The translations under genes and the position numbers were made by a program. From positions 1,601-65,600 of the IMG/VR virus record IMGVR_UViG_3300043179_000057: a DNA stretch of 64,000 bases; one strand, given 5' to 3'. Within the stretch, counting starts at the first letter, position 1. The number at the start of each line of letters is the position of its first letter. A model generated the notes under the pieces. That model searched no databases. It was not told where the DNA came from and saw only the letters and a program-made list of their open reading frames with translations. This document shows, one piece after another, positions 1,556 through 33,531 of the stretch. The stretch is from a virus.

Positions 1556-1816
1556 GTGCCCACCTTCCGCTTCAGGTGCCTCGAAGCCGCCTGCGGCGCC
1601 AGGGGGAGGCGCCTCCTTGAGGCCGGCGGCCTCGGGTCCGTCCGGTGCCCGTCCTGCGGCGGCCCGGTCGCCCGAGAAGACCCGGGGGCCCCGCACGCGA
1701 CCCCGGTCGAGGTCCTGGACAACGGCGTGATGGCGCGCTCGGTCGAGAGGCGGGCCGACATCGAGGAGCTGCTGGAGGAGCGGGAGAGGGCGCACGAGGG
1801 CGGGGGGGACCGGTGA
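1556..1816 (+). CDS. FmdB-like zinc-ribbon protein
   Basis: MPTFRFRCLEAACG...CPSCGG resembles the FmdB MPxYxYxC..CG...CPxCG pattern. Confidence 0.65.
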   Translation: MPTFRFRCLEAACGARGRRLLEAGGLGSVRCPSCGGPVAREDPGAPHATPVEVLDNGVMARSVERRADIEELLEERERAHEGGGDR

Positions 1817-3876
1817 GGCTGTCCCTGCGCGGCTTCGGCCCGTTCAAGGGGGGGTCGGACCTAGAACTCCCGGACCGCGGCATGGTCCTCCTGCGGGGCC
1901 GCAACCTGTCCACCGGGGGCGGCAGCGGCGCCGGCAAGTCGGCCCTGGGGGCGTCCATCGCCTACGCCCTCGGGTACTGCCCGGTCCCGGCCTCCCGGTT
2001 GCAGAACTGGTCCGACGGATCGCCCCCGCTCAGGGTGTCCCTCGCGGTCCCGGGCAGGTCCGGGGACGTCGAGGTCGTGCGGTCCGCCGGCCAGCTCTCC
2101 GTGACCGCCATGGGGCAGACGGTGGAGGGGGCCAGGCCGGCCGCCGAGCACCTGGCAAGGGCCATCGGGCTCCCCCCGTCCCTGCTCGGGGTCCTGGCGT
2201 ACCGGCCCCAGGGCGAGCAGGGGGTGTTCCTGTCCATGTCGGACGAGGAGAAGAAGTCGTTCATGTCCGACCTGCTCGGGCTCGCCCCCCTGGAGGCGGC
2301 CGCGGCCGCCGCCGCGGAGGCCGCCGACCGGCTGGGGAAGGCCGAGGCGGAGGCGCTCGCCGCCGCCGAGATAGCCGAGGCCCTGGCCGGCCGTGAGCCC
2401 GAGGGTCTCGGGGTGGACGTCTCTCGGTCTAGGCTGGCGGAGCTGGAGGCCCTGGACGCGACCCTGCGCGGAGAGCTGGAGGCAGCTAGGCAGGGCCTGG
2501 AGGCCGCGGCGGAGGAGGCGGACGAGCGGCTGGCGGTCGTCCTCGCCCCGCTGCGGGAGGCGGCCGCCGCCGCCGAGCGACAGCTCTCGGCCGTCCGGTC
2601 CAAGGAGGCGTCCTTCGAGGACCCCCAGGCCGCCGCCCAGCTCAGGGAGTGCCGGGACAGGAGGGGGCGCCTTGAGGCCGAGGACGCAGCGCGCCAGCGA
2701 GTCCACGCAAACGTCCGGGCGAACATGGTCAAGCTGCACTACGTCGCCACCCACGCGAAGACCCGGGAGGTGCCGCGCCTGGAGGCAGAGCTGGCGGCAG
2801 TCCGGGGGCAGATGGCGCTCCTGTGTAAGAAGGAGTGCCCGACCTGCCTGCGCGCCTGGGACGACACCGCCCCGGCCGTCGAGCGCCTGGCGGCGGAGGA
2901 GGGGCTGATCGCGGCCCAGCTGGAGGCGGCCCGGAGCGCCGCCGAGTCCGTCACGGACCTGGAGCGGTGGGACCTGTCCAACCCGTGGGAGCCCGACCCG
3001 AAGGTGGCGGCCTTCCTCGAACTGGAGCGTCAACTAGAGACCGGTCTAGCCGCGTCCAGGGCCAGGGTTCGCGCGGAGGCCCTGGCGGAGGAGGGGCGCC
3101 TGGAGGCGGAGCTGCGGTCGCTGGAGCAGTCGGCCCAGCTCGCCCGGATGGCGTCCGCGCAGTACCCCAGGAGGGCGGAGCTGGAGGCGGCGCGCGACAC
3201 GGCCAGGGTCAGGTGCGCCGCCAGCTCCGAGTCGCTGGCGGCGGCCAGGAGGGAGCTGGCGGCGGCCGAGGAGAGGTCCCGGAGGGCGGAGGAGGTACGG
3301 GAGGAGGCCCGGCGTCTACGGGACGCGCACCGGGCCGCCAAGGCCGCCGCCGCCGCCGAGCGAGACTTCTCGGACCTGGTGGGCAGGAGGGGGTTCCTCG
3401 GAGCCATCTTCGACGAGGCCCTGCTGGAGGTGGCGGACGACGCCAACCGCATCCTGGCCTCGGTGGCGAACGTGCGGCACCTGTCGGTCTCGTTCAGGTC
3501 GGAGGTCGCGACCAAGAGGGGCGAGGCCAGGCGCTCCATAGCGATGGCGGTCCGGGTCGGCGGGCAGGAGCTGGTCGGGGCCGAGGTGCGCCACGGGATC
3601 TCCGGCGGGCAGCTCAGCGCCGTCCGCCTGGCGGTGGACCTGGCCCTGCTGTCGGTGGTCGAGCGGCGGACCGGTCTGCGGGTGGGGTGGCTGGTCCTGG
3701 ACGAGGCCTTCGACGGCCTAGGCGTGGTGGAGAAGGAGACCTGCCTGGAGGTCCTCCGGGGGGTGTCGTCCGACCGGCTGGTGCTGGTCGTGGACCACAG
3801 CAGCGAGATGGGCGAGCTGTTCTCTCGCGAGGTCGTGGTCGAGCACCGGGACGGCGAGTCCTGGATAGCGTCTTGA
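1813..3876 (+). CDS. sbcC: Rad50/SbcC/gp46-like SMC-family ATPase
   Basis: Walker A GSGAGKS, long coiled coil with central zinc-hook CPTC, signature ISGGQ, Walker B LVLDEAFDGL, H-loop VVDHS. True start is GTG 1813, overlapping the upstream TGA. Confidence 0.9.
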   Translation: MRLSLRGFGPFKGGSDLELPDRGMVLLRGRNLSTGGGSGAGKSALGASIAYALGYCPVPASRLQNWSDGSPPLRVSLAVPGRSGDVEVVRSAGQLSVTAMGQTVEGARPAAEHLARAIGLPPSLLGVLAYRPQGEQGVFLSMSDEEKKSFMSDLLGLAPLEAAAAAAAEAADRLGKAEAEALAAAEIAEALAGREPEGLGVDVSRSRLAELEALDATLRGELEAARQGLEAAAEEADERLAVVLAPLREAAAAAERQLSAVRSKEASFEDPQAAAQLRECRDRRGRLEAEDAARQRVHANVRANMVKLHYVATHAKTREVPRLEAELAAVRGQMALLCKKECPTCLRAWDDTAPAVERLAAEEGLIAAQLEAARSAAESVTDLERWDLSNPWEPDPKVAAFLELERQLETGLAASRARVRAEALAEEGRLEAELRSLEQSAQLARMASAQYPRRAELEAARDTARVRCAASSESLAAARRELAAAEERSRRAEEVREEARRLRDAHRAAKAAAAAERDFSDLVGRRGFLGAIFDEALLEVADDANRILASVANVRHLSVSFRSEVATKRGEARRSIAMAVRVGGQELVGAEVRHGISGGQLSAVRLAVDLALLSVVERRTGLRVGWLVLDEAFDGLGVVEKETCLEVLRGVSSDRLVLVVDHSSEMGELFSREVVVEHRDGESWIAS

Positions 3877-3902
3877 CCTAGGAGCGGCTCGTGGTGTAGC
3901 TT
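3873..3902 (+). promoter_or_regulatory. Putative sigma70 promoter, leaderless
   Basis: TTGACC-18nt-TAGCTT; ATG 3909 follows the -10 by 6 nt, with no RBS. Confidence 0.55.
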
Positions 3903-3908
3903 GTGCCC

Positions 3909-4160
3909 ATGCCGCTCACCGCGCGCGACCTGTCCGACCTGACGTCGATGGCCATCGACGAGTTCAAGGCGCTCCCGGTGGGGTTCAGGCTCCAGGGCAT
4001 GGACAGGCCGGCCACGGCGGAGGAGATGACCAAGATAGCCATCTTCCTCGCCTCGGCCAGGATCATGGGCCGGCTCAAGCTCCTCACCGGGGACGTGTCG
4101 AACGACGACCTGGTGGGGGTCGGGCGCCCGGACTTCTCTTCGGTGTTCGAGGGGTCTTGA
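3909..4160 (+). CDS. Hypothetical protein
   Basis: ATG 3909 downstream of the promoter; ORF track 3903..4160. Confidence 0.65.
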   Translation: MPLTARDLSDLTSMAIDEFKALPVGFRLQGMDRPATAEEMTKIAIFLASARIMGRLKLLTGDVSNDDLVGVGRPDFSSVFEGS

Positions 4161-10004: not shown

Positions 10005-10414
10005 GCGCCGAACGGGCCAAGGTAAGGCGCCCCGCGGGCACCTCGTCCTACGAGTGCTCGGAGTGCCGATGCAGGATCGACGAGCGGCGTTGCCTAGTCT
10101 GCGAGGCCGCCCTGTTCCCGCAGCGGTGTCGCGTATGCCGCAAGGAGTTCGAGCGACAGGACCGGCCATGCGAGGCTCTGCCTCCCGAGGAGGTCCAGAA
10201 GCGCCTTGAGGAGGACCCGGGTTTCGTGGCCATGAAGAAGTACCACTACTCCCTTGAGGAGATGATCGAGAGGCACCCGGACGGATGCGACGACTACCTC
10301 ATCTCCAAGGCGCTATGCATCACCCAGAAGCAGGTCCAGGCCATGTGGGCCAGGGTGGTTGTGAAGCTGCGCAAGGAGATGGGCGTCGGGAGGGAGGACC
10401 TGGGCCGTGGCTGA
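10001..10414 (+). CDS. Zinc-finger protein with a C-terminal HTH-like segment
   Basis: TTG start overlaps the upstream TGA; CxxC x3; DDYLISKALCITQKQVQAMWARVVVKLRKEM. Confidence 0.6.
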   Translation: MSAERAKVRRPAGTSSYECSECRCRIDERRCLVCEAALFPQRCRVCRKEFERQDRPCEALPPEEVQKRLEEDPGFVAMKKYHYSLEEMIERHPDGCDDYLISKALCITQKQVQAMWARVVVKLRKEMGVGREDLGRG

Positions 10415-13400
10415 CGAGAGGAACTTCGCCAGCCCGCACGTCCACCCGATGTCCCTCGACACGGGATCGACCGTGGAGTCCTTCGCCGACCGCGAGGAGG
10501 AGCTGGGTACCGGGGCCATCACGGCCACCGACCACGGCAGCCTGGCGGCCTGCCGCATGGTCTACGACGTGGCCAGGGAGCGCAAGCTGACCCCCATCCT
10601 GGGATGCGAGTTCTACTTCCGGGACGACGACTGCACCATCCTCCTCGGGGCCGGCGCCCAGAAGAACAAGGACGGCAAGCTGGTGGACTTCGTCAAGTAC
10701 ATGCACGGCACCGTGCACGCGCTCGACCAGCCGTCCTACGAGCGCCTGGGGGCCCTCCTGTCTCACGCCGACGCCAGGGCGGAACAGCACGGGCAGGAGC
10801 GCAAGCCGCTGTTCTCGTGGAAGGAGATGGAGGAGATCGGGGGCCTGAACGTCACCCTGGGCTCGGGGTGCCTCATCGGCATGGTGCAGCGCCACCTCCT
10901 GGAGAGGGACGACGCGGCCACCGCGGTGGCCTACTACGAGCGACTGCGTGGCCTCGCGCGCCCCGGCCACTTCTACGTGGAGGCCTTCCCCCACGACTGC
11001 AGCCGCAACTACACCAAGGCGGTCTTTCTGACCCTGGAGGACGGCCGGAAGCTGCGCTACCACTTCGACAAGAACCTGAGGACGACCGAGGGGGAGACCA
11101 CGGCGGAGGCGCTGGCCTTCCGCAAGGTCCGAGGCAAGCTGCTGGCGGTCAAGCACTACCGGAAGTGGGAGGACGAGGCCTCCCCGGTCGAGATCGTATC
11201 GGTGGACAAGGTCGAGGGGTTCGTGGAGAACCAGTGTCGCCCGTGGTGCAACACGACGGACGTGCAGGCGGGGACGAACAGGTTCATGCTGGCCATGGCT
11301 AGGAGGTACGGCGACCCCGTCCTGGTCAGCGACGACGCCCACTACGCCCACCCGGACGACAAGATCGTCCAGGACGTACGCCTGGCGCAGAGCGGGCCGT
11401 GGAGGTTCTACGGCAGCTACCACCGACAGTCATCTGAGGACGCCTTCGCTTACTTCGGCGCCCGGATGGGCGTCCCCCGGGCCGAGTTCGACTCCTGGGT
11501 GGAGAACAACGCGGCGTGGGCCGCCAGGTTCAAGGACTTCCGGTTCGAGTACAAGCCCAGCCTGCCTGCGAAGTTCTACCCCGAAGACACCGTCTCCTAC
11601 ATGACCGAGCTGATCAACCGGCACGGGCGCATGCGGTGGGACGACCAGAGGTACAAGGCCAGGCTCCGGGCGGAGGTGGAGATGCTCCACCTCAACGGCA
11701 CCATCGACCTGCTGCCCTACTTCTTCCTGGCCGAGGAGGCGTGCCGGCAGTACGCCGACCAGGGCGAGCTTACCGGGGTGGGCCGGGGGTCGGCCGCCGG
11801 CCTCCTGCTGGCCTACCTGCTCGGCATCACGCACATGGACCCCATCCGGTACGAGCTGTCCCTGGAGCGCTTCATCACGCTGGACCGCATCAAGAGCGGC
11901 AGCCTGCCGGACATCGACCTCGACTTCCCCGGGCGCGAGCTGCTGACCCGGGAGGGCGGCTGGCTCGACAAGAGGTTCGGGGCCCACTACGCGCAGATAT
12001 CGGTGGACACGACCCTGAGGCTGCGAAACGCGGCCAAGGACGTGGCTCGCCTGACCCGGGGGCACGTCCCGCCCCAGGTAGAGGCCCTGACCAAGAAGTT
12101 CGCCCAGCCCCCCCAGAACGTGGACGACAAAGACTTCGTGTTCGGGTACGAGTCCGACGACGGCACGCAGGTCAAGGGCTCCATAGAGACCGACGAGGCC
12201 CTGCGGCAGTACATCCGGGAGTTCCCCCGGGAGTGGGGCATCCTGCAGAAGTGCCTGGGCCTGGCGCGGAACAAGGGCCGACACGCGGCCGGGTTCGTGA
12301 TCGCCAACCGGCCCATCCACGAGTTCATCCCGCTCACCTCGGTGTCGGGCCACAAGGTCACGCAGTACACGGCCCCCTCGGTGGAGGCGTGCGGCGGCGT
12401 CAAGATGGACTTCCTGGTCATCAACAGCCTCAAGGACATCGGCGCCGCGGTGCGTCTGGTCCAGCAGAGGGCCGGTGTGGGCATCCCGAAGGAGGGCGCG
12501 ACCATAGACGGGATCCACGTGCCGGCCCACCGCCTGGTGCCCTTCCGGGGGCGCCTATACGACGTGTGGGACCTGCCCGAGGACGACGCGGTGTTCACCG
12601 ACACCCTCAAGGGCCGGACCGAGACCGTCTTCCAGCTAGACACCCCGGGAGCCACCGGGTGGTTGAAGAAGTTCGACCACCTGCGCCCCGACGGGCGGCC
12701 GCTGATCTGCAGCGTCCTGGACGGGGCCGCCTTCACGGCCCTCGACCGGCCCGGAGCCCTGGACGTCGAGCTGAAGAACCCGGAGGGGGGTCCGCCCCAC
12801 AACGCCCTGGTGGAGTACGCCAGGAGGGCCCGGGGCCTCGCCCCTAGCCCGGACGTCCCCTCCTTCCTATCCGAGCTGTTCCCGGAGACCCACGGGGTCA
12901 TGGTCTACCAGGAGCAGCTCCAGCGCGCCTACCAGCACCTCACGGGCTGCAGCGGCCCCGAGGCGGAGGAGTTTCGCCGCAACGTGGCAAAGAAGAAGAT
13001 GGACAAGGTCGAGAAGGCCTTCCCGTTCTTCCTGGCCGGCGCCTCGGCCAAGCTCGGGGAGGAGAACGCGCGGGGGGTGTGGAAGTTCTTCATCACCTGG
13101 GCCAAGTACGGGTTCAACAAGTCTCACGCGGCGTGCTACGCCCTGACGGGGTACGTGTGCGCCTTCATGAAGCACCACTACCCCCTGGAGTGGTGGTGCG
13201 CCGTGCTACGCAACGCGCACAAGGACGAGGTGTGTGTCCAGTTCTGGCCCTTCTGCGGCCACCTGGTGGACCTCCCCGACCTGTCTAGGCTGTCCAACGT
13301 GTTCGAGATCCACGGCGACCGCATCGTCGCCCCGGTCAGCCTCCTGCACGGGATCGGGGAGAAGGCGCACGGTCAGATCCTGCGCTACGCCCCCTACTCG

Positions 13401-14333
13401 GACCTGAACGACTTCTGCGCCAAGATCGTGCGCCACAAGAAGGACACCGGGGCCTACGTGGCCTCAGAGGTCGTGGACAAGAAGACCAAGCAGACCAAGG
13501 TCGAGCTGAAGTTCCGCGGCGGGCACAGCTCCATCCATCGCGGGGTCGTCCACAACCTGATCGTCTCGGGCACCATGGACTCAATCCTGCCCGAGGCCGT
13601 CCGCGGGGGGACGATGCTGGACAAGCTGGACGCCTTCGAGGCGGCTATGGAGGCCGCCGGGGAGAAGCCCGAGAGGGTCCCCGGATGGTACGCCCAGGTC
13701 GGGCCCCTGGCGAGGTACCTGTTGCGACGCGCCATCCTCCCGGCCTACTCCGAGGACCTACGGCCCGTCCTCCTTCAGGTCGGCTACAAAGGGGTCTCCA
13801 AGACCCCGGACGGGTGGTTCTGGGAGGGCCAGACGATGCTGGCCGACGCCCGCGACATGCGAGCCATCGACGAGCTGCCGTTCATCCCGGAGGGCGGCCT
13901 CCAGGTCGTCGTGGTGGGTCACGTTCTGGAGGTCAGGAACTTTCCCACCAGGCGCGGTCCGGCACGTGAGTTGCACCTTGACATCTCCGGGGAGAGGGTT
14001 AAAGTTGTCGCGTGGTCGAGGAACGGAGAGCTTCCTAAGAGGGTCAGCGCGGCGGGGGACGTGGCAGACGCGATAGTCCTGGTCGGGCTGTCGAAGTTCA
14101 GGGCCGGCAAGTCCTTCATGATAGACTGGGTCCAGGTTGCGCAGGAGCAGGTAGAGAAGGCTAAGGAGCGGTGGAATGTCGAAGAAGCGAAGCGTAAAGA
14201 CGATAGCAAAAGAGGTCCAAAAGGCAGAAAAGCTGACCAAGATGGACCCGGCCGACTACCCGGAGGCGACAAGGGCCGGGTGGGAGGCAAAGGCGAACTC
14301 CGCCAGGGAGGGCCTGCCGTCCCTCAAGGCTGA
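10407..14333 (+). CDS. dnaE: DNA polymerase III alpha subunit (family C)
   Basis: PHP motifs HVH, TDHG, GCEFY, DAHY; GRGSAAG..AYLLGIT..DP; PDIDLDF; KMDFL; VYQEQ; YGFNKSHA. Confidence 0.95.
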   Translation: MADERNFASPHVHPMSLDTGSTVESFADREEELGTGAITATDHGSLAACRMVYDVARERKLTPILGCEFYFRDDDCTILLGAGAQKNKDGKLVDFVKYMHGTVHALDQPSYERLGALLSHADARAEQHGQERKPLFSWKEMEEIGGLNVTLGSGCLIGMVQRHLLERDDAATAVAYYERLRGLARPGHFYVEAFPHDCSRNYTKAVFLTLEDGRKLRYHFDKNLRTTEGETTAEALAFRKVRGKLLAVKHYRKWEDEASPVEIVSVDKVEGFVENQCRPWCNTTDVQAGTNRFMLAMARRYGDPVLVSDDAHYAHPDDKIVQDVRLAQSGPWRFYGSYHRQSSEDAFAYFGARMGVPRAEFDSWVENNAAWAARFKDFRFEYKPSLPAKFYPEDTVSYMTELINRHGRMRWDDQRYKARLRAEVEMLHLNGTIDLLPYFFLAEEACRQYADQGELTGVGRGSAAGLLLAYLLGITHMDPIRYELSLERFITLDRIKSGSLPDIDLDFPGRELLTREGGWLDKRFGAHYAQISVDTTLRLRNAAKDVARLTRGHVPPQVEALTKKFAQPPQNVDDKDFVFGYESDDGTQVKGSIETDEALRQYIREFPREWGILQKCLGLARNKGRHAAGFVIANRPIHEFIPLTSVSGHKVTQYTAPSVEACGGVKMDFLVINSLKDIGAAVRLVQQRAGVGIPKEGATIDGIHVPAHRLVPFRGRLYDVWDLPEDDAVFTDTLKGRTETVFQLDTPGATGWLKKFDHLRPDGRPLICSVLDGAAFTALDRPGALDVELKNPEGGPPHNALVEYARRARGLAPSPDVPSFLSELFPETHGVMVYQEQLQRAYQHLTGCSGPEAEEFRRNVAKKKMDKVEKAFPFFLAGASAKLGEENARGVWKFFITWAKYGFNKSHAACYALTGYVCAFMKHHYPLEWWCAVLRNAHKDEVCVQFWPFCGHLVDLPDLSRLSNVFEIHGDRIVAPVSLLHGIGEKAHGQILRYAPYSDLNDFCAKIVRHKKDTGAYVASEVVDKKTKQTKVELKFRGGHSSIHRGVVHNLIVSGTMDSILPEAVRGGTMLDKLDAFEAAMEAAGEKPERVPGWYAQVGPLARYLLRRAILPAYSEDLRPVLLQVGYKGVSKTPDGWFWEGQTMLADARDMRAIDELPFIPEGGLQVVVVGHVLEVRNFPTRRGPARELHLDISGERVKVVAWSRNGELPKRVSAAGDVADAIVLVGLSKFRAGKSFMIDWVQVAQEQVEKAKERWNVEEAKRKDDSKRGPKGRKADQDGPGRLPGGDKGRVGGKGELRQGGPAVPQG
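13978..14005 (+). promoter_or_regulatory. Putative internal sigma70 promoter within dnaE
   Basis: TTGACA-16nt-TAAAGT in a locally AT-richer patch. Confidence 0.45.
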
Positions 14334-16617: not shown

Positions 16618-17727
16618 ATGGCAAAGGACTTTCTGAAGAAGCTACAGGAGCTGGAGGGGGCGGTTCGGGGGGAGTACAACCCCTTCAACCACACGATCAG
16701 GACCCCCTCCCCGAGCACGAACTTCACGCTCGGCAACACCCACGGGCTGCCCCTCGGGTACTCGTGCATATTCTGGGGTCCGCCGGGCGAGGGAAAGTCC
16801 CTGCTCAGCAACCTCACCATCGGCCAGATGCACCGCGACGACCCCGAGGCCATCGCCCTCAAGTGGGACACCGAGTTCCGCGAGGAGGGGCAGATGACCA
16901 AGGAGTCGATGGCCATGTTCGGTATCGACCCGAAGCGCTACCAGGCGTGGAGCGTCAACAGCCCGTCCGAGGTGTTCGACCGGTTCGAGCAGGACGTGGC
17001 TGACCTGTGCGACCAGGGCGCCCCGATCAAGCTGGCGATCATCGACTCCATCACCGGGGTCAAGGGGAGGAGGTCGGAGAACGCCACAACCGTGGACACC
17101 ATGCAGAGGGGGGACCACGCGGCCACCATCCAGGACGGTCTGAAGATGATCCTGGCGGTCCAGCGCAAGTACCGGATCGCCGTCATCCTGACCGCCCACC
17201 AGCGGGCCGAGCAGGACGAGAAGGAGCTGGCCCGCCACGCCACGGTCCGCATGGCGGCCGCCTGGGGCATGAAGCACTACGGCGAGTACTACCTCAACGT
17301 GCGCGCCAACCGGAACAAGGACGGCCGCACCGACCTCCTGGAGAGGTCCCTGCGCGACGACTCCCTCCAGGACGTGCGTCTGGGGGAGGGCGAGCTGACC
17401 GCCCGCAAGATCCACACCACCGTGACGAAGTCGGCCTTCGGACCGTCCGGCCGCACCGGACAGTTCACCTTCGACTTCAAGAGGGGCATCATCAACGTCC
17501 ACGAGGAGGTGTTCCTCCTCGGGGTGGCCCGCGGCATCATCGAGGTGCTCCCCGGCAACCGGTTCTACGCCTTCGGCGGCAACAAGTGGAACGGGAAGGC
17601 CGCCATCCTGGAGGAGCTGGAGAAGAACGCGGAGATGCAGTCCGAGGTCCTCAGGCAGCTCCGCCAGAAGGACCTGGCCGGCGCCTGGTCCAAGGACGAG
17701 ATCCCGGAGCAGGGGGGAGAGGGGTAG
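16618..17727 (+). CDS. recA: RecA/UvsX recombinase
   Basis: Walker A GPPGEGKS, WDTE, Walker B IIDSIT, KSAFGP..R. Confidence 0.92.
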   Translation: MAKDFLKKLQELEGAVRGEYNPFNHTIRTPSPSTNFTLGNTHGLPLGYSCIFWGPPGEGKSLLSNLTIGQMHRDDPEAIALKWDTEFREEGQMTKESMAMFGIDPKRYQAWSVNSPSEVFDRFEQDVADLCDQGAPIKLAIIDSITGVKGRRSENATTVDTMQRGDHAATIQDGLKMILAVQRKYRIAVILTAHQRAEQDEKELARHATVRMAAAWGMKHYGEYYLNVRANRNKDGRTDLLERSLRDDSLQDVRLGEGELTARKIHTTVTKSAFGPSGRTGQFTFDFKRGIINVHEEVFLLGVARGIIEVLPGNRFYAFGGNKWNGKAAILEELEKNAEMQSEVLRQLRQKDLAGAWSKDEIPEQGGEG

Positions 17728-22764: not shown

Positions 22765-23448
22765 ATGAAAAAGCTGTTCGTCTTGGGGCTGTTCGTGTTT
22801 TTGATGAGCTGCGCTAGCATGAGGCCGGCGCCGACCGAGGAGGCCCAGGAGGGCCTGAACCACGCGGTCAAGCTGGAGGTGCGGGTCGCCTCCATGGAGG
22901 CCGGCAAGACGGTCGTCCACCACGGGACGGGGACGGGAACGGTGGTGGCGAAGGCGAAGAACGGCAGCGCTCTGATCCTCACCGCCGCCCACGTGTGCAG
23001 GCCGCAGGGGGCCGTGGCCTACGTGCTCCAGGCGGTCGAGCGGTCCGAGGAGACGGTCCCCGCCACCGTGCTGAACTACAGCTACAAGCACGACCTGTGC
23101 CTGGTGAGCGCCCCCCTGACCGTGGTGCGCCCGGCGGACGTCGCCAGGTACGTGCCTCCGGTCGGCGCCAAGGTGCACTACGCCGACGGCCTGCTCTACG
23201 GCCCCGCCCTCGTCGCGGTGCGTGACGGTAGGTACGCCGGGGACACCACCTACGGAGACGACAACGACAGAGACTTCACCGTCCTGACGACGCAGGCGCA
23301 CGGCGGGGACAGCGGGGCGGGGGTCTACTACCACGGGCGGCTCTTCGCGGTGGTCCTTGGAGGCCTCAGCGCGAGGGGCGAGACGTCCGGGGCCAGGGTC
23401 ACTCTCTGTGCCACCATGCGGCAGATACGCAGCTTCCTGGAGGAGTAG
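22765..23448 (+). CDS. Trypsin-like (S1) serine protease, predicted lipoprotein
   Basis: MKKLFVLGLFVFLMS-C lipobox; triad motifs LTAAH, HDLCLV, GGDSGAG. Confidence 0.85.
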   Translation: MKKLFVLGLFVFLMSCASMRPAPTEEAQEGLNHAVKLEVRVASMEAGKTVVHHGTGTGTVVAKAKNGSALILTAAHVCRPQGAVAYVLQAVERSEETVPATVLNYSYKHDLCLVSAPLTVVRPADVARYVPPVGAKVHYADGLLYGPALVAVRDGRYAGDTTYGDDNDRDFTVLTTQAHGGDSGAGVYYHGRLFAVVLGGLSARGETSGARVTLCATMRQIRSFLEE

Positions 23449-24144
23449 GTGAGGGACATCGAGTCGATCGGGCGGGCCGACGGGCTCGCGCTGGTGTGGG
23501 AGGCCTCCGACCGCGTGCGGAGCTGGCGGCCGGGGTTCGGGATCCGGCCCAAGTCTGTCTCTCGCTTCCACCGGGTCGTGGGCTCGATCATGGCCGCCCT
23601 GGGGAGCGCCGACTACCGGGACGAGCTGTGGACCACCCTGTGGCGCAGGTCGTACTGGCCGACGAGCCGACCCCCGTTCCGAGTCGAGGACGCCGCGGTG
23701 GTGTGGCACGAGGGCTGGCACGCCAGGTGGACCGGGAGCCCGCTGCTGTTCCTGCCGTACGCCATGCTCTACCTCGCCCCCGCCTCCCTGGCGCCCCTGG
23801 CCCTCCTGCTGCCGGGGTGGTGGCCCCTGCTGGGCCTGGCCCTCCTGCTGCCGCTGCCGGCCCCCTTCCGCCTCTGGTCGGAGACGCGGGGCTACGCCTG
23901 CCAGATGGCGTTCCACAGGGGCCTCGGCTGGTGGGACGGGGCCAGCTTCGAGGAGCTTGACGCAGCCTACTACGACCAGTTCGGCCACTTCTTCGCCGGG
24001 ATGGCCTACTACTCCCCCGTGGGGAGGCCGATAGCCCGATGGATGATCCGCAGAAGCCTGCGCCGGCTCATGGCCGGCAGGCTCACCAGGTACGAGCAGG
24101 ACGCGGAGCGACACGGGATTGACAGCAGACGGACCGGACCCTAG
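23449..24144 (+). CDS. Membrane-associated zincin-like metalloprotease, putative
   Basis: VVWHEGWH (HExxH), hydrophobic hairpin, then ETRGY as candidate third ligand. Confidence 0.6.
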   Translation: MRDIESIGRADGLALVWEASDRVRSWRPGFGIRPKSVSRFHRVVGSIMAALGSADYRDELWTTLWRRSYWPTSRPPFRVEDAAVVWHEGWHARWTGSPLLFLPYAMLYLAPASLAPLALLLPGWWPLLGLALLLPLPAPFRLWSETRGYACQMAFHRGLGWWDGASFEELDAAYYDQFGHFFAGMAYYSPVGRPIARWMIRRSLRRLMAGRLTRYEQDAERHGIDSRRTGP

Positions 24145-24394
24145 CGACGAGCGGTGCCCGCACTGCGGGGCGGGGACGTTCGTCCACCGCCTGGAGGCCA
24201 GCGACGAGATCTACTGCCCGCGGTGCGGGTACGAGGAGAAGCGCCTTCTGGACGGGCTCCGGAGGCTCAAGGCGTCCGATCCGCGCCCACCTCCCTCGGG
24301 CGGCATGAGGCCCCCTACGATCCCAGCGCCGCGTGCAACGGAGGAACACCCTGGCGAATCTACGGGCCGGATGCAGATGGAAGCAGGACGATAG
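24119..24394 (+). CDS. Zinc-ribbon protein with its C-terminus replaced by the insertion
   Basis: CPHCG...CPRCG. The native end appears to lie after the second repeat copy (…GGMRPLKRGPGRVPKTGFRGR, stop 25478). Confidence 0.5.
   Translation: MTADGPDPSDERCPHCGAGTFVHRLEASDEIYCPRCGYEEKRLLDGLRRLKASDPRPPPSGGMRPPTIPAPRATEEHPGESTGRMQMEAGR
24213..24314. repeat. 102-bp direct repeat, copy 1
   Basis: ACTGCCCGCGG…CATGAGGCCCC is identical to 25327-25428. Confidence 0.95.
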
Positions 24395-24477
24395 GGATGG
24401 GGGTAGAAGCCTTTGAAGATGACAACGGCCAGGAATGGCTAATGCTTTGTACGGTTTTTGAAAAGGACCACACATGA
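24316..24477 (+). pseudogene. 3' half of a DUF4258/RelE-like toxin gene
   Basis: PWRIYGPDADGSRTIGMGVEAF…LMLCTVFE; ATGA overlap with the antitoxin; no native 5' end. Confidence 0.5.
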
Positions 24478-25067
24478 AAAAGCCGACGACCAAGGCACTG
24501 AACTGCGCGTGCGGCGGCGTCCTCAAGGAGGCGTCGCTCGATAGCTACGACTTCTCCGGCTACACCGGGTTTCACACCATATTGCAGAACGTTCCCGGAC
24601 TTCGCTGCACGAAGTGCGGCGGGGAAACGCTGCACGGTGGGATGATTCACATGATCTTCAAGTGCCTCATCGTCGAGATCGCTAAGACACAGCGCCGTCT
24701 ATCGTCCAACGAAGCCCGCTTCTTGCGTCGGGTCATGAACATGACCCAGCAGGAACTTGCTACACGAATGGCCATCGCCAGGGAAACGGTAGCCAAGTGG
24801 GAATGCGGCGACGCAGAGATCTCCCCGCAGCATGATTTTATCCTCCGCGTCGTCGTACTAACGCCCCTTATCAGGAGCAATCCAACGATGATGCCGAAAG
24901 CACTGTGGATGGAACTGCTAGGAGAACTACAGGCGGCGCGGAACGCTCCACCAGAGAAGCTCGATCCGGTCGATCTGACGCAGTACAAGCAAAGCCTGGC
25001 AAAGAAGCGCAAGACTTGGCCGGCGAGCGCTAGGGGAGAAGGCCTCGCGGCAGAGGCCACCGTCTAG
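24474..25067 (+). CDS. MqsA/YgiT-type zinc finger plus XRE-HTH antitoxin
   Basis: CACGG…NVPGLRCTKCGGE; ARFLRRVMNMTQQELATRMAIARETVAKWECG. Confidence 0.85.
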   Translation: MKKPTTKALNCACGGVLKEASLDSYDFSGYTGFHTILQNVPGLRCTKCGGETLHGGMIHMIFKCLIVEIAKTQRRLSSNEARFLRRVMNMTQQELATRMAIARETVAKWECGDAEISPQHDFILRVVVLTPLIRSNPTMMPKALWMELLGELQAARNAPPEKLDPVDLTQYKQSLAKKRKTWPASARGEGLAAEATV

Positions 25068-25297
25068 CGCTTCCACCTGGCCTTCGCCGCCGCGCGCGCG
25101 ATCTCTGCCCTCCGCTTCTTTGACAGTGCCGCTGCCCTGGCTTTTCCGCCCTTGGCCCCGCCGAGCTTCCCGAGTGCCACAGCGGCGGGGTTCTTCCCCG
25201 CGTCCGGGTTGGGCTCGACAGCCTGACCCGTAGCGATGTCCGTGATCAGCTTCGCTAGCTGGTTCGCGTCCCGTGGCCTGCTTGAGCGTCTAGGCAT
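25064..25297 (-). CDS. Small basic protein (RPRDxNQLAK / KNPAAVALGxxGGxKGGKAR type)
   Basis: 77 aa from ATG 25297; Lys/Arg/Ala-rich C-terminus. Confidence 0.8.
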   Translation of the reverse strand: MPRRSSRPRDANQLAKLITDIATGQAVEPNPDAGKNPAAVALGKLGGAKGGKARAAALSKKRRAEIARAAAKARWKR

Positions 25298-25326
25298 GAT
25301 CCAGCCATGCCACGGAACGCGGGCCG

Positions 25327-25428
25327 ACTGCCCGCGGTGCGGGTACGAGGAGAAGCGCCTTCTGGACGGGCTCCGGAGGCTCAAGGCGTCCGATCCGCGC
25401 CCACCTCCCTCGGGCGGCATGAGGCCCC
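25327..25428. repeat. 102-bp direct repeat, copy 2
   Basis: Identical to 24213-24314. Confidence 0.95.
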
Positions 25429-25479
25429 TCAAGAGGGGGCCGGGACGGGTCCCGAAGACTGGGTTCCGGGGGCGGTAGG

Positions 25480-25488
25480 TGGTATGAT
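25480..25488 (+). promoter_or_regulatory. Extended -10 promoter, leaderless
   Basis: TGG-TATGAT; ATG 25495 follows by 6 nt. Confidence 0.6.
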
Positions 25489-25494
25489 GGGGCG

Positions 25495-26277
25495 ATGCCG
25501 TCGTTCAGGGTAGCAAGCGACCTCCACCTGGAGCACCGGGAGGCCCTGGAGGTAGACCTTCTGGTATCGGAGCTTACGGCCGACCCAGAGGAGGACGCCC
25601 TCGTCCTGGCGGGGGACGTCGTGAGCCTCAAGATGCTGCTGGAGAACTCCAAGAGGGGGCGCCTCGCCGTGGAGTCCATGCGCAGGCTGTGCGACGCCTA
25701 CCCTCGCACGGTGTGGGTGTTCGGGAACCACGAGTTCTACGGCTCGGACGCGTCCAGGGAGGACGCCCTCCAGGCCGCCGCGGACGAGGCGGTGGGCCGG
25801 GAGTCCCTCTCGATCCTCAACCCCGGGACGGTCGAGGTGGCCGGGGTCGCGGTGGTGGGCGCCACCATGTGGTTCAGGGACGCCCACAAGAACAAGGAGT
25901 TCGAGGGGTGCCTGGCCGACTTCCGGCTCATCAAGAACTACAAGCCGTGGGTGTACCTCAGGAACCAGCAGCACCTCGCGTACATCCGGGAGCGTCTGGC
26001 TGCGTGCGACCCGGCCAGGACGCTGGTGGTGACGCACCACCTCCCGTCGGTCGCGAGCGTGCCGCCCAGGTTCGCCTACGACGAGACCAACCGGTTCTTC
26101 GTGTGCGACGTGGAGGACGTGATCTGCGACTACAGGCCCGCCGCCTGGGTTCACGGCCACACGCACAGCACGTGCGACTACCGCGTGGGGGCGACCAGGG
26201 TGGTCTGCAACCCGCGCGGGTACCCCAACGAGCGGGACGCCAGCTTCGACCAGCGCCGCGTCGTGAGGGTGGGGTGA
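25495..26277 (+). CDS. Metallophosphoesterase
   Basis: SDLHLE, LAGDV, GNHEFY, THHLP, HGHTH. Confidence 0.9.
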   Translation: MPSFRVASDLHLEHREALEVDLLVSELTADPEEDALVLAGDVVSLKMLLENSKRGRLAVESMRRLCDAYPRTVWVFGNHEFYGSDASREDALQAAADEAVGRESLSILNPGTVEVAGVAVVGATMWFRDAHKNKEFEGCLADFRLIKNYKPWVYLRNQQHLAYIRERLAACDPARTLVVTHHLPSVASVPPRFAYDETNRFFVCDVEDVICDYRPAAWVHGHTHSTCDYRVGATRVVCNPRGYPNERDASFDQRRVVRVG

Positions 26278-26549
26278 CCGCAAGGCAGCGCCGGGCGCTC
26301 AAGGTGATGGCGAGGACCCGGGGCGGGCTCTCCAGGAGGGTCGGAGGCCACTGGGAGGTCGAGGGTACCCCCTCCTACCCGTCCTTCGGCCTGACGATTC
26401 CGTCGATGTGGGTCTCGACCATGGAGGTCCGGGACCTGGACCGGGCCGGTATCACGGTCAGGCCGGAGGAGCCCGTGGAGGGGCGCCCGGAGAGGCGCGT
26501 CCTGAGCGAAGAGGGGCTGGCGGCCGCGCTGGCCATGCTGGCCCGGTGA
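26274..26549 (+). CDS. Hypothetical protein
   Basis: GTGA overlaps at both ends. Confidence 0.55.
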   Translation: MTARQRRALKVMARTRGGLSRRVGGHWEVEGTPSYPSFGLTIPSMWVSTMEVRDLDRAGITVRPEEPVEGRPERRVLSEEGLAAALAMLAR

Positions 26550-27094
26550 GGCTGGAGGAGGCGCCGCCGTGGTGCGGGGTCCTGGTGGGCCTGGCGCCCT
26601 CCCGGTCCTCTGACCCGGCCGTCCCCGTCCTAGGCGGACGCTCCGGGAGGTTCCTGGCTGAGCTGGCCGGCGTCCCCACCCACGCCCTGGCGTTCCTGTT
26701 CGTTCGGGTCAACCTCCTCGGACGCCTGCCGGAGCGGGTGGCGCGCGGGGACCTCGTGGGGCCTGCCTGGGGGGTCGTCAGCGCGCTCGGCGGCCGCAGG
26801 GCCGTGCTCCTGGGCAGGGACGTGGCCGGGGCCTGCGGGGCGCGGGTGCGCGGCCTGGGCTCCGCCCCCTGGCTGGAGTGGAGGCCGCTCCCGAGCGGGA
26901 GCGGGGCGGTGATGCCCCACCCGTCCGGGCGCAACCGGTGGTGGAACTCCCAGGACAACCGGGCCGCCGCCCGGGCCTTCCTCCGCGAGGAGATGACGCG
27001 CATCGCCAGGAAGGCGATGGAGGACATCCCGGACGGAGTCGTGCTACAATCGATCCAGAGGATCGCCGAGGGAGACTTCGACCGCGGTTCATAA
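26546..27094 (+). CDS. Uracil-DNA glycosylase-like superfamily protein
   Basis: LVGLAP motif A, RVNLL, VLLGRDVA, MPHPSGRNRWWN motif B. Confidence 0.7.
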   Translation: MRLEEAPPWCGVLVGLAPSRSSDPAVPVLGGRSGRFLAELAGVPTHALAFLFVRVNLLGRLPERVARGDLVGPAWGVVSALGGRRAVLLGRDVAGACGARVRGLGSAPWLEWRPLPSGSGAVMPHPSGRNRWWNSQDNRAAARAFLREEMTRIARKAMEDIPDGVVLQSIQRIAEGDFDRGS

Positions 27095-27108
27095 ACGGAG
27101 GGCGATAG

Positions 27109-27396
27109 ATGAACAAGCACCTGACGACGGCGTGGCGCTACCTGAGGATAGGGATCGTGCTGGGGTTCGAGGTCTTCATGATCGTGGGGGCGGTGGCGGC
27201 GGCGTGCGCCGCCGCCGTGGCCATAGCCCTTTCGGGGCAGATGATGCCCGCGTACAAGCTGGTCGGCGTCGCCGCCGCCGTGGCGGTGTACGCCGCCTGC
27301 ATGGCCGGCCGGCGGGTCTCCCGGGAGGCCGTTCTGAATATCGTTCTTACGGACGAGGAGCTTGCGGAGGCGACCAAGCACCCCAAGAAGTGGTAA
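27109..27396 (+). CDS. Two-TM membrane protein
   Basis: Two hydrophobic segments, basic C-terminus, RBS GGAGG. Confidence 0.65.
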   Translation: MNKHLTTAWRYLRIGIVLGFEVFMIVGAVAAACAAAVAIALSGQMMPAYKLVGVAAAVAVYAACMAGRRVSREAVLNIVLTDEELAEATKHPKKW

Positions 27397-27400
27397 GCTG

Positions 27401-27623
27401 GTGGCCGGCTGCCGGCACACGCACTTCCGCCACTCCATCAAGATGGAGCGGGTCGGCTCCAGGGCGCTGGTGCTCCGAGTGCGGCAGCCCGTTCGTGTTC
27501 AAGGGTCCGGGCGGGTTCTCCACCTACCAGCCGTCCGCGTCGGTAGGGGGCACCATGCTGTACGCCCCCGTGATGTTCCCTCTTACGCACTCCGACAAGC
27601 CAGAGGACAAGGGGCCTAACTGA
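27401..27623 (+). pseudogene. Apparently frameshifted small Cys/His protein
   Basis: CRHTHF..KMERV in one frame; WCSECGSPFVFKG…YAPV in another frame ends at a TGATG junction. Confidence 0.4.
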
Positions 27624-27910
27624 TGGCCAGGGCGAGCGCGGGGCCGGTCTCCGGCCTCAGGAGCGGCGACCGGGTGCGCACCGTCCAGCAGGTGCACGAC
27701 ATCTCCTGGGCCTTCCCGGTCCCGGCCGGGTCCGTAGGGCGCCTGGGCTCCCTCTACCGCGTCCAGGACGGCCTGGAGGTCTGGCAGATGTTCCTGGACC
27801 GGGCCACGGGGGCAAGTCCATGCTCTGAGTCGCCCACACGCACGTCGAGAGGCTTGACGACGACGGCGCCCCGGAGTAGGGTGAGGGCGTGTCGAAGTTC
27901 CTGGACGTGA
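27623..27910 (+). CDS. Hypothetical protein, SH3-like N-terminus; 3' end uncertain
   Basis: LRSGDRVRTV…VPAGSVGRL. Confidence 0.45.
   Translation: MARASAGPVSGLRSGDRVRTVQQVHDISWAFPVPAGSVGRLGSLYRVQDGLEVWQMFLDRATGASPCSESPTRTSRGLTTTAPRSRVRACRSSWT
27854..27882 (+). promoter_or_regulatory. Putative sigma70 promoter, leaderless
   Basis: TTGACG-17nt-TAGGGT; GTG 27889 follows by 6 nt. Confidence 0.6.
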
Positions 27911-28113
27911 GCGGGAAGGAGCTGGAGGCGGCGGTGGACGCCCTGCGGGGCCTCATCGAGGCCCGGGCGGACGAGCTGACCATGGAGGGCGAGTCGCTGG
28001 ACGAGGCGGTGCAGGGCGCCATGGAGAGGGACGCGGCCCTGGACCTCGCCATCATGAGGGCGGCCCACGCGGTGGCGGCGGAGAAGGAGAAGCTGTGGCC
28101 GGCGGGCACATAG
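27889..28113 (+). CDS. Hypothetical acidic helical protein
   Basis: 74-aa ORF downstream of the promoter. Confidence 0.6.
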   Translation: MSKFLDVSGKELEAAVDALRGLIEARADELTMEGESLDEAVQGAMERDAALDLAIMRAAHAVAAEKEKLWPAGT

Positions 28114-28826
28114 CCGAGTCCGGCTCGGTAGACTGGCGCACTCCGTCAAAGATAGTGGAGCCGTCTAGGGCGGCCCTGGGCGGGCGCATAGACCTGGACC
28201 CGTGCTCCACGAGCGGCTCCCTGGTCAAGGCCCGCCACGAGTTCCTGCTGTCGCGCCGCGAGGACGGCCTCGGGCTGTCCTGGACCCACCCCCACGAGCT
28301 GGCCAAGGATTTCCCCTACCACGACGGGCTCGGGACGCGGGTGTCGGTGTACGTCAACCCGCCGTACGGCCGGTGCTACCTGAACCGGACCACCTTCGAG
28401 GTCCTGACGCAGAGGGAGTTCCGCGAGAGGTTCCCGGACGTGCTCCAGAGGAAGCACCTGACGAGGGACCGGGCCTGGACCGTGTCGGACATCGGGGACT
28501 GGGTCGAGAAGGCCTACCGGGAGCACCAGGCGGGGGCCGACGTCGTGATGCTCATCCCCGCCGCCGTGGATACGGCCCACTGGCAGGACGTCATCTTCCC
28601 CCACGCCAAGGCGATATGCTACCTGAGGGGGCGGGTCAGGTTCGAGGGCGCGGCCCAGGGGGCTCCGATGGCGTGCGCCACCGTGTACTTCGGGGCGGAC
28701 CCGCTCGGGTTCATGAGGGCCTTCCACCACCTCGGGTCGCCGTGGTTCGGGAGGACCGACTACCACGAGGCCCTGGCGAGCGGGGCCGTCGAACCGCAGC
28801 GACCGCAGGAGGCAGCGCATGGCTAG
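28095..28826 (+). CDS. Phage DNA N6-adenine methyltransferase (Dam-like)
   Basis: IDLDPCS (SAM binding), VYVNPPYG (catalytic), MLIPAAVDTAHWQ, YLRGRVRF. Confidence 0.88.
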   Translation: MAGGHIAESGSVDWRTPSKIVEPSRAALGGRIDLDPCSTSGSLVKARHEFLLSRREDGLGLSWTHPHELAKDFPYHDGLGTRVSVYVNPPYGRCYLNRTTFEVLTQREFRERFPDVLQRKHLTRDRAWTVSDIGDWVEKAYREHQAGADVVMLIPAAVDTAHWQDVIFPHAKAICYLRGRVRFEGAAQGAPMACATVYFGADPLGFMRAFHHLGSPWFGRTDYHEALASGAVEPQRPQEAAHG

Positions 28827-32148: not shown

Positions 32149-33531
32149 TTACGCTCCCACCGACCCGGGCGTCCCGTCGGCCCCGTCGGCCCCGTCCGCG
32201 CCGTAGTTCTCGATGTGGCGGTCCTGGTTGACGTGAACGATGATGCCTCCGCCCCCCTTGCGACCGCGGCGTCCCGCGCCGCCTCCGCCTCCGGCGCTGT
32301 TCTGCGCGGGATTGCTGCTGTCACCCCCATCACCGCCGTCGCCGCCGTCACCCCCATCACCGCCGTCGGCCTCGATGATGCCGGAGCCCTGAAGAAGGCT
32401 TCCGTAGATCAGGAAGATGGCCCCGGCGCCCCCGCCAGCGCCTCCAGAGCCCCCGCCGCCTCCGCCTCCTCCGCCCTGGTTCTCCACGCCGACCGTGGAG
32501 ACGCCCGGACCGCCGTCGCCGCCGTCGCCGCCAGCTCCGCCGTTGCCGCCGTTCGCGCGGATGACGCCGCCCCCGGAGATGTCGATGACCTTGGCGCACA
32601 GCCACACGAGGCCGCCGCTGCCGCCCGCGCCGCCGCCTCCGCCACCAGCTCCGCCGGTCGTCCGAGACCCGATCGGCGCGTTGCTGCTACCGCCGCCACC
32701 ACCGCCTCCCGCGCCACCACCACCGGCCAGGCCGCCACAAATGCGCTTCCATGCGGCGGTGGCCCCACCTGAGATGGAGCATGCCGAGGTTGCGGTAAGA
32801 TAGTGGGTGGCGGGCAGGAAGCTGCCCACCGCCCAGGTGACGGCCGACCCGACCGAGGCGTCGCTGCCGTTGCTGCCGGTGTCGCCGTCGTCTGCCTCGG
32901 ATGTGCCGGCCGCTCCGGCCGCTCCGCCTGTCGCCCCGCTGCCTGTGCCGCTGCCCGTGCCGCTGCCTCCGCCCGTCCCGCCGGCTCCGCCGGCTCGGCC
33001 AGCGTTGGAACCTACGATGCCGCCACCACCACCGCCGCCACCACCGCCTCCGGCACCGCCACCACCGCCACCGGCCTGGTGGCCAAGGGAGGTGGACGTG
33101 GAGCCGCCGTTGGAGCCGGCGCCGCCGTTGGCCGACGCCGTTCCTCCGTTGCCGCCCGCACCGCCGGCAGCCCCGGCAGCTCCATCGATAAATCCTGAGC
33201 CAGGCGAGCTGCCTGCGGTGCCTGCGGTGCCGCCCGTGGGGGCCGCCGGGGGCGGATCGTCGTTGTCGCCGTCGCCGCCGTCGCCGCCAGCTCCGCCGTT
33301 GCCGCCGCTGCGCGTGATAACGCACGACGAGTTGGCTAGGGTGATGTTCTCGGCGAACATCCGGTACCCGCCCGTGTTGAGGATCTGGGCTCCGGTGCCG
33401 TCCAGAACGACCTCGCCGTAGCTCTTGTCGCTCGCCAGCGTTACGCTGGTCGCCCCCGTCAGCGTGAGGTCGCCGTCGGTAGGCTCGGGGTTGAAGAACT
33501 CTATGTAGCCGGTGCCGCGAAATCCAGCCAT
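32149..33531 (-). CDS. Glycine-rich (PGRS-like) fibre protein
   Basis: GGxGGxGG repeats throughout; a 41-bp exact repeat at 32511 and 33267. Confidence 0.75.
   Translation of the reverse strand: MAGFRGTGYIEFFNPEPTDGDLTLTGATSVTLASDKSYGEVVLDGTGAQILNTGGYRMFAENITLANSSCVITRSGGNGGAGGDGGDGDNDDPPPAAPTGGTAGTAGSSPGSGFIDGAAGAAGGAGGNGGTASANGGAGSNGGSTSTSLGHQAGGGGGGAGGGGGGGGGGGIVGSNAGRAGGAGGTGGGSGTGSGTGSGATGGAAGAAGTSEADDGDTGSNGSDASVGSAVTWAVGSFLPATHYLTATSACSISGGATAAWKRICGGLAGGGGAGGGGGGGSSNAPIGSRTTGGAGGGGGGAGGSGGLVWLCAKVIDISGGGVIRANGGNGGAGGDGGDGGPGVSTVGVENQGGGGGGGGGSGGAGGGAGAIFLIYGSLLQGSGIIEADGGDGGDGGDGGDGGDSSNPAQNSAGGGGGAGRRGRKGGGGIIVHVNQDRHIENYGADGADGADGTPGSVGA

Follow-up and report, generated by a model that had tools for sequence, protein, structure and literature searches.

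How does a phage come to hold an intact antitoxin gene next to a toxin gene that has lost its front half, and could such a gene be of use to it? This question is raised by a stretch of 64,000 nt (hereafter the window) of the 81,240-bp viral contig IMGVR_UViG_3300043179_000057, recovered from a freshwater metagenome and deposited in IMG/VR. In this window a small zinc-ribbon gene is interrupted by a 1012-bp insert that lies between two copies of a 102-bp direct repeat and contains the 3' part of a toxin gene, an intact gene for a 197-aa MqsA-like antitoxin and an intact minus-strand gene of 77 aa, and nothing else. As outlined here, the capture of this DNA by the phage is very probably real. 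The explanation as a whole, in which illegitimate recombination brought in the fragment and the phage thereby gained a putative orphan antitoxin with a role in counter-defence, is offered tentatively and falls somewhat short of being probable.

The two repeat copies are 100% identical, are spaced 1114 nt apart and constitute the sole long exact repeat of the window, in which the remaining repeats are low-complexity coding sequence. The DNA that they enclose is foreign by composition. The GC content of the insert is 0.61 overall and about 0.56 over its first 700 bp, which make up the toxin-antitoxin (TA) part, versus 0.69 for the window, and the GC content at third codon positions (GC3) is 0.73 in the antitoxin gene versus 0.90-0.98 in the phage genes. 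TA modules of the same family that reside in high-GC Myxococcota genomes have a GC content of 0.58-0.62, similar to that of the insert. A preliminary description of this locus, made from the DNA letters, had reported a lower-GC segment between perfect repeats, and both its composition and its repeat boundaries agree with these values.

The same description held that deletion of the insert together with one repeat would rebuild a phage gene, and the reading frames bear this out. ORF A, the interrupted open reading frame (ORF) on the left, consists of 65 native residues, which include both Cys pairs of the zinc ribbon (CPHC...CPRC), followed by 26 residues encoded by the insert up to a TAG stop codon at 24392-24394. 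On the other side, an ORF at 25236-25478 reads the right repeat in the same frame in which ORF A reads the left copy, and the GC3 of this frame is coding-like (0.88) on both sides of the insert. Because both copies lie in one frame, removal of the insert and one repeat yields an 81-aa zinc-ribbon ORF, composed of the 65 native residues and a 16-aa tail, that ends at 25478. This restoration rests on frame logic without homologue support, since the zinc-ribbon gene is nearly an ORFan, with two weak matches among 1.8 billion representative sequences and otherwise weak generic zinc-ribbon hits. A reading of this protein as the restriction-alleviation protein Lar was rejected, the hit behind it being a generic, sub-threshold zinc-ribbon match.

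An insert bounded by long identical repeats invites the suspicion of an assembly artefact, all the more so as our reading of the structure is drawn from contigs and unitigs, including the Logan contigs (k-mer length k=31) of the likely source run, listed as SRR12687952 for the 1072-bp contig. One could suppose a separate circular or tandem molecule of 1114 bp that shares 102 bp with the phage and whose loop was threaded into the contig. In fact, the Logan contigs break exactly at the repeat and their k=31 graph has the form of a plain loop around a node of 102 bp. The unitigs of repeat, insert and downstream flank connect in the manner expected of an insertion, but the sequencing depth fits an insertion or a circle alike. 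Yet a second contig (L010, 4985 bp), which comes from another Joint Genome Institute (JGI) sample, matches window positions 23246-28230 at 99.98% identity and contains both repeats and the insert. The sole difference between the two in 4985 bp is G24365A, located within the toxin remnant, where it changes a Gly that is invariant in the family to Glu (in the frame of the zinc-ribbon read-through tail it changes Gly to Ser), which is the type of change expected in a dead gene. Two separate assemblies thus agree on the structure, including both junctions, and one of them has a private mutation inside the insert. JGI metagenome assemblies are normally built with k-mer lengths of up to 127, which exceeds 102, and with such lengths the junctions would require real spanning k-mers. 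Moreover, a 1.1-kb circle that lacks a replication gene and still carries 102 bp of a phage gene is implausible, except as a product of excision. Because the independent contig has the same structure and its own point difference, an assembly artefact is highly improbable, and so is the chimera that the preliminary description had named as its possible undoing.

Whether every phage genome in the sample carries the insert is a separate matter. Among the Logan unitigs, the 102-bp repeat has a depth of 99 and the 1072-bp unitig that covers the insert (24285-25356) a depth of 35.4, whereas the downstream phage unitigs reach 50.1, 51.7 and 51.5, so that in this one sample the insert is present at about 70% of the depth of its flanks (35.4 vs 50-52). 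If all genomes carried it, depths of about 101 for the repeat and about 51 for the insert would be predicted, and the insert is observed at 35.4; a mixture of insertion, empty site and circle predicts a repeat depth equal to insert plus flank, i.e., about 86, and 99 is observed. Because neither model fits fully, these values are taken as a hint, and as no more than that, of a mixed population in which some genomes lack the insert.

The toxin remnant comprises 53 codons (24316-24474) and a TGA stop codon that overlaps the ATG of the antitoxin gene. It aligns to the C-terminal part of toxins of 92-105 aa that are encoded upstream of the relatives of the antitoxin, and it is matched by positions 46-97 of the 98 positions of the family toxin profile; this profile has no other match in the 81-kb record, and its N-terminal half matches nowhere in it. 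About 40 N-terminal residues are gone, and with them two helices, two strands and the near-invariant motif H-F-x-x-R-x-x-x-R, so that the domain is incomplete and the window copy appears from its sequence to be dead, both helices and the motif having been lost. The earlier claim of a toxin reduced to its 3' part is thereby made precise. In nearly all of about 20 related loci a full-length toxin gene lies directly upstream of the antitoxin gene, often with an ATGA overlap, which is a toxin-first operon of which the window keeps only the toxin 3' part. The family is DUF4258-like. DUF4258 (PF14076, of the RelE/ParE BECR fold) comprises small toxins with an H..R..ER motif that are paired or fused with MqsA-like antitoxins; it is listed as a BECR-fold toxin family that is experimentally undescribed (PMC11980606). 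The toxins considered here resemble it in having a RelE/BrnT-like fold, but they differ in that their matches to PF14076 stay below threshold (22.2 bits for the best full-length relative versus a gathering cut-off of 25) and in that the window copy is a non-functional C-terminal stump. Weak PF14076 hits were obtained for 8 of 14 family members (best E-value 9.3e-5) and none for the stump. The fold was recognized on the model of a full-length relative, not on the window stump: with a predicted local distance difference test score (pLDDT) of 92, this model has as its best match in the PDB the toxin of a TA complex, 7vd7_A (template-modeling score 0.69, probability 1.0), followed by BrnT (3u97, probability 0.97), HigB2 and RelE. 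A sequence search of the PDB with the toxin profile gave no meaningful match, and PADLOC contains no defence-system model that matches the toxin, the antitoxin (weak helix-turn-helix hits only) or the 77-aa protein. In four loci from Myxococcota bins (L028, L029, L019 and L032, at about 2150-2450 in each), a toxin homologue is split over two frames beside an intact antitoxin gene; these are either frameshifted, decaying genes or assembly errors.

In contrast to the toxin, the antitoxin is complete. It contains an N-terminal four-Cys zinc ribbon, an XRE-type helix-turn-helix (HTH) domain (HTH_3 match at residues 88-119) and a C-terminal extension, and in the alignment with its relatives every family-invariant residue is present; C11, C13, C45 and C48 are invariant across 19 of these relatives. 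A zinc ribbon followed by an XRE-type HTH is the two-domain arrangement of MqsA, and the AlphaFold2 model of the window protein (pLDDT 86.8) has E. coli MqsA (3gn5) as its best PDB match (E-value 5e-5 over 134 columns). The protein had been described as MqsA-like and intact, and its full length, its conserved residues and this structural match speak for that assignment. The MqsR/MqsA system of E. coli (PMC2791442, PMC6918082) is among the closest known systems but differs in several respects. Unlike in that system, the partner toxin is DUF4258-like instead of MqsR, CxC takes the place of CxxC as the first Cys pair, the C-terminal part is extended by about 70 aa, and the scores stay under the curated family cut-offs, both for TIGR03830 (49.8 versus 61.8 bits, E-value 2.8e-13) and for PF15731 (16.5 versus 30). 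Searches returned 103 homologues, the closest being 56-58% identical, and the antitoxin's exact-sequence cluster consists of three contigs, all of them of this phage. When the window antitoxin was co-folded with a full-length toxin of the family, the score was 0.43 versus 0.10 for the best control, with a contact agreement between runs of at least 81% and a partner pLDDT of at least 72; the mark used for such predictions is attained by 58 of 80 solved complexes and by 2 of 110 mismatched pairs. This co-folding lends weak support to a predicted pairing of the two proteins. The coordinates of these and the other features of the locus are collected in Table 1.

Table 1. Features of the interrupted locus in window coordinates, with the basis on which each was assigned.
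Feature	Position	Strand	Basis
Interrupted zinc-ribbon gene, ORF A, 91 aa	24119-24394	+	ORF list; GC3 0.88 in this frame
Chimeric ORF of the preliminary description, 107 aa	24154-24477	+	First 54 codons in an alternative frame of the zinc-ribbon gene
Repeat, left copy (duplicated target)	24213-24314		Own 102-bp Logan unitig, depth 99
Foreign insert, 1012 bp	24315-25326		GC contrast; one Logan unitig; same insert in contig L010
DUF4258-like/RelE-BrnT-fold toxin stump, C-terminal 53 codons and TGA	24316-24477	+	Alignment, profile
Possible relay mini-ORF, 26 codons, toxin frame	24397-24477	+	Read from the sequence; conjectural
MqsA-like antitoxin, intact, 197 aa	24474-25067	+	Family alignment, TIGR03830, AlphaFold2 model
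Intact 77-aa gene	25064-25297	-	Homologue search; convergent with the antitoxin gene, stop codons overlapping
Repeat, right copy	25327-25428		Exact-repeat match
Displaced native 3' end of the zinc-ribbon gene, 16 codons and stop	25429-25478	+	Frame match, GC3 0.88

How the insert entered can be approached from what it contains and where it ends. No transposase, no integrase or recombinase gene and no terminal inverted repeats were found in it, and the duplication measures 102 bp and is not short, so the locus does not qualify as a transposon, an insertion sequence or an integrative element. The ends ignore gene boundaries: the insert begins in the middle of the toxin gene, runs through the antitoxin gene and stops 29 bp upstream of the start of the convergent 77-aa gene, so that one end cuts a gene and the other a promoter region. 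With mobility genes and terminal inverted repeats absent, and with a gene severed at one end and a promoter region at the other, capture by illegitimate recombination, as proposed earlier, fits these observations. In the model that we favour, the donor would be a TA locus on a mobile element of Myxococcota, and a fragment of it would have been joined to the phage by end joining or by template switching between replicating genomes. One phage end would have been joined to the foreign DNA after position 24314 and the other foreign end to a phage molecule at a point 102 bp before that position, a joining step that would have duplicated 102 bp of the target. The alignment to the toxin profile extends three codons into the repeat, and because of this there may have been microhomology at the run of C residues at 24311-24315, which the donor might share in its Pro-Tyr codons. 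A different route would start from a small circle that already bore the 102-bp phage segment and entered by Campbell-type homologous recombination or with a recombinase acting in trans. A single crossover of this kind yields exactly two perfect direct repeats flanking the cargo, but the circle could acquire the phage segment only through a prior illegitimate event, the first repeat copy fails to rebuild the 3' end of the gene, unlike in usual att-type integrations, and neither a recombinase gene nor inverted repeats are present. Such entry from a circle is very unlikely.

The surrounding genes suggest in which lineage the capture took place. The interrupted gene is part of a plus-strand block of replication and accessory genes in the genome of a large phage, together with genes for an SbcC-like protein, a ribonucleotide reductase, a DnaE-like polymerase, DnaB, a UvsX-like recombinase, a methyltransferase and a metallophosphoesterase, while the virion and baseplate proteins are encoded in a minus-strand block. 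The best cultured-phage match of the DnaE-like polymerase (10407-14333) is that of Myxococcus phage Mx1, with 46.9% identity over 95% of the length, which on sequence grounds makes this phage a distant relative of the lytic Mx1 and points to soil-type (myxo)bacteria as its hosts. The genome of Mx1 measures 169.6 kb and fits the CheckV estimate of 49% completeness for the 81-kb contig (implied genome size about 165 kb). Relatives of the metallophosphoesterase are at most 42% identical and lack synteny; in Mx1 the phosphoesterase gene lies within a tRNA cluster without an adjoining zinc-ribbon gene, and the 231-aa upstream gene of the window has no Mx1 match. Mx1-like environmental phages appear to be rare in IMG/VR. 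The UvsX-like recombinase (16618-17727, plus strand) and the SbcC-like nuclease subunit (1645-3876, plus strand) imply recombination-dependent replication, which is of relevance for the gain and loss of repeat-flanked inserts. Elsewhere in the window, positions 32161-33325 form a dense field of GC-rich repeats with a period of 9 nt, Gly/Pro-rich and collagen-like if read on the minus strand, in which a GC3-based gene finder called almost nothing and within which the Logan unitigs break as well; it may represent a gene for a collagen-like fibre.

In species-level genomes, the full-length antitoxin relatives come nearly all from Myxococcota (Polyangia, Kofleriaceae, Sorangium and "Myxococcales" bins), with one from an Acidimicrobiia bin. 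They are found on mobile DNA, i.e., beside integrases in an integrase island, on a type IV secretion element and on a phage-like contig. This last contig (L057) bears a complete TA pair at 3086-4017, near Amidase_2, PDDEXK_1 and AAA_24 genes and many small ORFs, which shows that temperate-phage-like elements are among the carriers of the TA module. Upstream of its toxin gene there are TTGACC/TATGTA hexamers, promoter-like by eye only; its toxin was cut to 68 aa by the gene caller. Given a phage related to Mx1 and a TA family with hardly any members outside Myxococcota, the donor may plausibly belong to the host lineage and could be a resident prophage or some other mobile element. Of the earlier proposal that the host was the donor, the lineage thus stands, but searches of sequence collections did not turn up the donor itself: none was found in any collection searched, where the nearest antitoxin relative is 58% identical, and the toxin stump shared too few words with any sequence in the search. 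The insert was found in one public run only, the likely source sample, and in no RNA run. A 40-mer of the repeat, used to look for the empty site, had no match in metagenome and viral collections from which the phage's own and near-identical records are excluded.

The preliminary description had further proposed that a promoter, TTGACA-17-TAGCGA, drives a chimeric ORF that opens at GTG 24154 and reads into the toxin remnant, with which the antitoxin would be translationally coupled. The promoter finds no support. The string is present, but its TTGACA, at 24119, contains the TTG start codon of the zinc-ribbon ORF, TAGCGA agrees with TATAAT at 2 of 6 positions, and a scan of 23300-26400 gave no sigma-70-like site, which leaves it no better than chance; a terminator scan found one weak hairpin, at the chance rate. 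The chimeric ORF exists, but a special meaning for it is doubtful. The GC3 of its upstream frame is 0.59 versus 0.88 in the zinc-ribbon frame, the probability of such an open stretch arising by chance is about 0.4 (stop codons occur at about 1.5% per codon, and the window contains 107 non-coding-like ORFs of at least 100 aa), and a separate Shine-Dalgarno sequence (AAGGA, 24463-24467) lies 6 nt ahead of the ATG of the antitoxin gene. A simpler route of expression would be read-through from the co-oriented phage genes combined with this ribosome-binding site. A translational relay through the mini-ORF of Table 1 is also possible on sequence grounds: its ATG lies 3 nt past the stop codon of ORF A, an AGGA (24385-24388) precedes it by 8 nt, and its TGA overlaps the antitoxin ATG.

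What could such a gene do for the phage? In the counter-defence that we propose, read-through of the phage operon would yield the antitoxin independently of its native autoregulated promoter, and during infection this antitoxin would bind the cognate DUF4258-like RNase toxin of a TA abortive-infection module borne by the host or by a prophage, so that the toxin would stay neutralized once the host's own labile antitoxin runs out. The locus qualifies as an orphan antitoxin in that an antitoxin homologue is carried by a phage, as indicated by the replication and structural genes and the kinship with Mx1, without a functional toxin. The basis for assigning it this function is the tight coupling of the antitoxin to its toxin family, the weak co-folding signal above controls, the retention of the insert in two populations despite the repeats, and the precedents described below. 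On these grounds, counter-defence is an attractive possibility that is rather less likely to be true than false. The repeats bear on it directly. As the preliminary description had noted, they make the capture reversible: 102 bp are long enough for the insert to be excised precisely, which the UvsX-like recombinase of the phage could bring about, as could the RecA of the host, and the depth of the insert is low. Because such loss is possible, the insert would persist only if it is neutral in the short term or selected.

Several observations weigh against a selected function and suit the contrary reading, namely that the insert is a neutral or slightly harmful passenger, a recent accident without benefit that is being lost through the repeats and is tolerated because the zinc-ribbon protein retains its 65 N-terminal residues. 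Insert ends that cut the toxin gene and fall 29 bp before the start of another gene, together with the carriage of a second intact gene, look like random capture. An insert depth of about 70% is as compatible with ongoing loss or incomplete spread as with selection. The two repeat copies have stayed 100% identical, and no shift of the codon usage towards the phage pattern is seen. A cognate or near-cognate TA module above 60% identity was not found among 15 billion proteins or in the indexed runs, including the phage's own sample, and the complex prediction supports the pairing weakly. Finally, the insert occurs in this phage only, and the antitoxin family in no other phage of IMG/VR or INPHARED, which makes it a one-off and not a conserved counter-defence gene. 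Against a mere passenger, two assemblies that differ by a point mutation both contain the insert, which has thus persisted through some descent. Where a phage encodes its own recombinase, DNA lying between 102-bp repeats is expected to be lost quickly unless it is selected, and despite this expectation the insert is the majority form at about 50x depth. In addition, of all possible 1-kb fragments, the one kept consists of an intact, co-oriented antitoxin gene and an inactivated toxin gene. A passenger of this kind is a serious candidate, although not one that we would call probable.

The insert could also be useful in another manner, either because the HTH protein regulates host or phage transcription or because the 77-aa protein is the selected cargo. 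The XRE-type HTH of the antitoxin does match phage repressor families weakly, but in its relatives this HTH protein is tied to a toxin gene. The 77-aa gene, which had been overlooked in the preliminary description, belongs to a huge, uncharacterized family (>7880 matches, with automatic names such as 'histone H1-like' or 'putative RNA-binding') that often occurs in phage-like contexts, the closest relative, 88% identical, being encoded on a phage-like contig. However, the gene opposes phage transcription and retained only 29 bp of its native upstream DNA, and no promoter-like site was seen in the scan. Use of the insert in either of these ways is improbable. The 77-aa protein is basic and has the motif KNPAAVALG.LGG.KGGKARA, and its family lacks a Pfam model; relatives (e.g., L013 3616-3849 and L014 4001-4240) are frequently set in phage or prophage DNA near SocA/Panacea, P63C and lysozyme genes.

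Phage orphan antitoxins and the illegitimate capture of cellular DNA are both already known, and what is unusual here is the legible scar of the capture. The closest precedent for the proposed counter-defence comes from phage TE, of which, as summarized in PMC5086642, an escape mutant gained natural repeats of the ToxI antitoxin from the toxIN plasmid of its host by recombination (Blower et al., 2012). In that case a lytic phage took only the antitoxin part of a TA abortive-infection module of its host, by recombination, and was thereby able to neutralize the toxin; the capture described here would be of the same kind. The two cases differ in that ToxI is an RNA antitoxin of type III, selected in the laboratory and of proven function (PMC5086642), whereas the gene described here encodes a type II-style protein, comes from an environmental phage, lies beside a toxin stump within a target duplication of 102 bp, and has a putative function. 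Other phages contain an antitoxin homologue or mimic without a toxin, as does this one. In T-even phages, AdfN is an orphan antitoxin-like counter-defence protein of the DarG1/NADAR type, for which co-option from bacteria was inferred by its describers and which enzymatically removes ADP-ribose from DNA (PMC11825919); the vibriophage ICP1 encodes an antitoxin mimic directed against DarT (PMC11481870); and a chimallivirus encodes a DarG2-like protein, a homologue of DarG-type antitoxins (PMC13309987). Unlike AdfN and the DarG2-like protein, which are of the DarG type, the window protein is, to judge from its sequence, an MqsA-like HTH protein of the toxin-binding type, it is found in a single phage, and the scar of its capture is visible.

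How phages came by their counter-defence genes is mostly reconstructed from phylogenies, when the event is long past. In this phage both junctions, the dead stump, the foreign codon usage and possibly a mixed population can still be seen, which allows the mechanism of capture to be read directly. If the antitoxin is functional, the uncharacterized DUF4258-like/MqsA-like modules found in Myxococcota would be connected with defence against phages, the locus would be the natural counterpart of the laboratory experiment in which ToxI was captured, and long target duplications would be seen to switch accessory genes on and off in phages proficient in recombination. In its boldest form, which we consider unlikely though worth stating, the locus would be a polymorphic snapshot of a lytic, Mx1-like phage of Myxococcota, newly armed by antitoxin-only capture against a DUF4258/MqsA-type module of its host or of a prophage, in which the gene is gained and lost through the repeats at high frequency by the recombinase of the phage itself; it would then be, as far as we have found, the first natural protein (type II-style) antitoxin captured in this manner and the first hint that DUF4258 serves in phage defence. 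Should the antitoxin prove non-functional, the locus would remain a clean case of a lytic phage capturing cellular DNA illegitimately.

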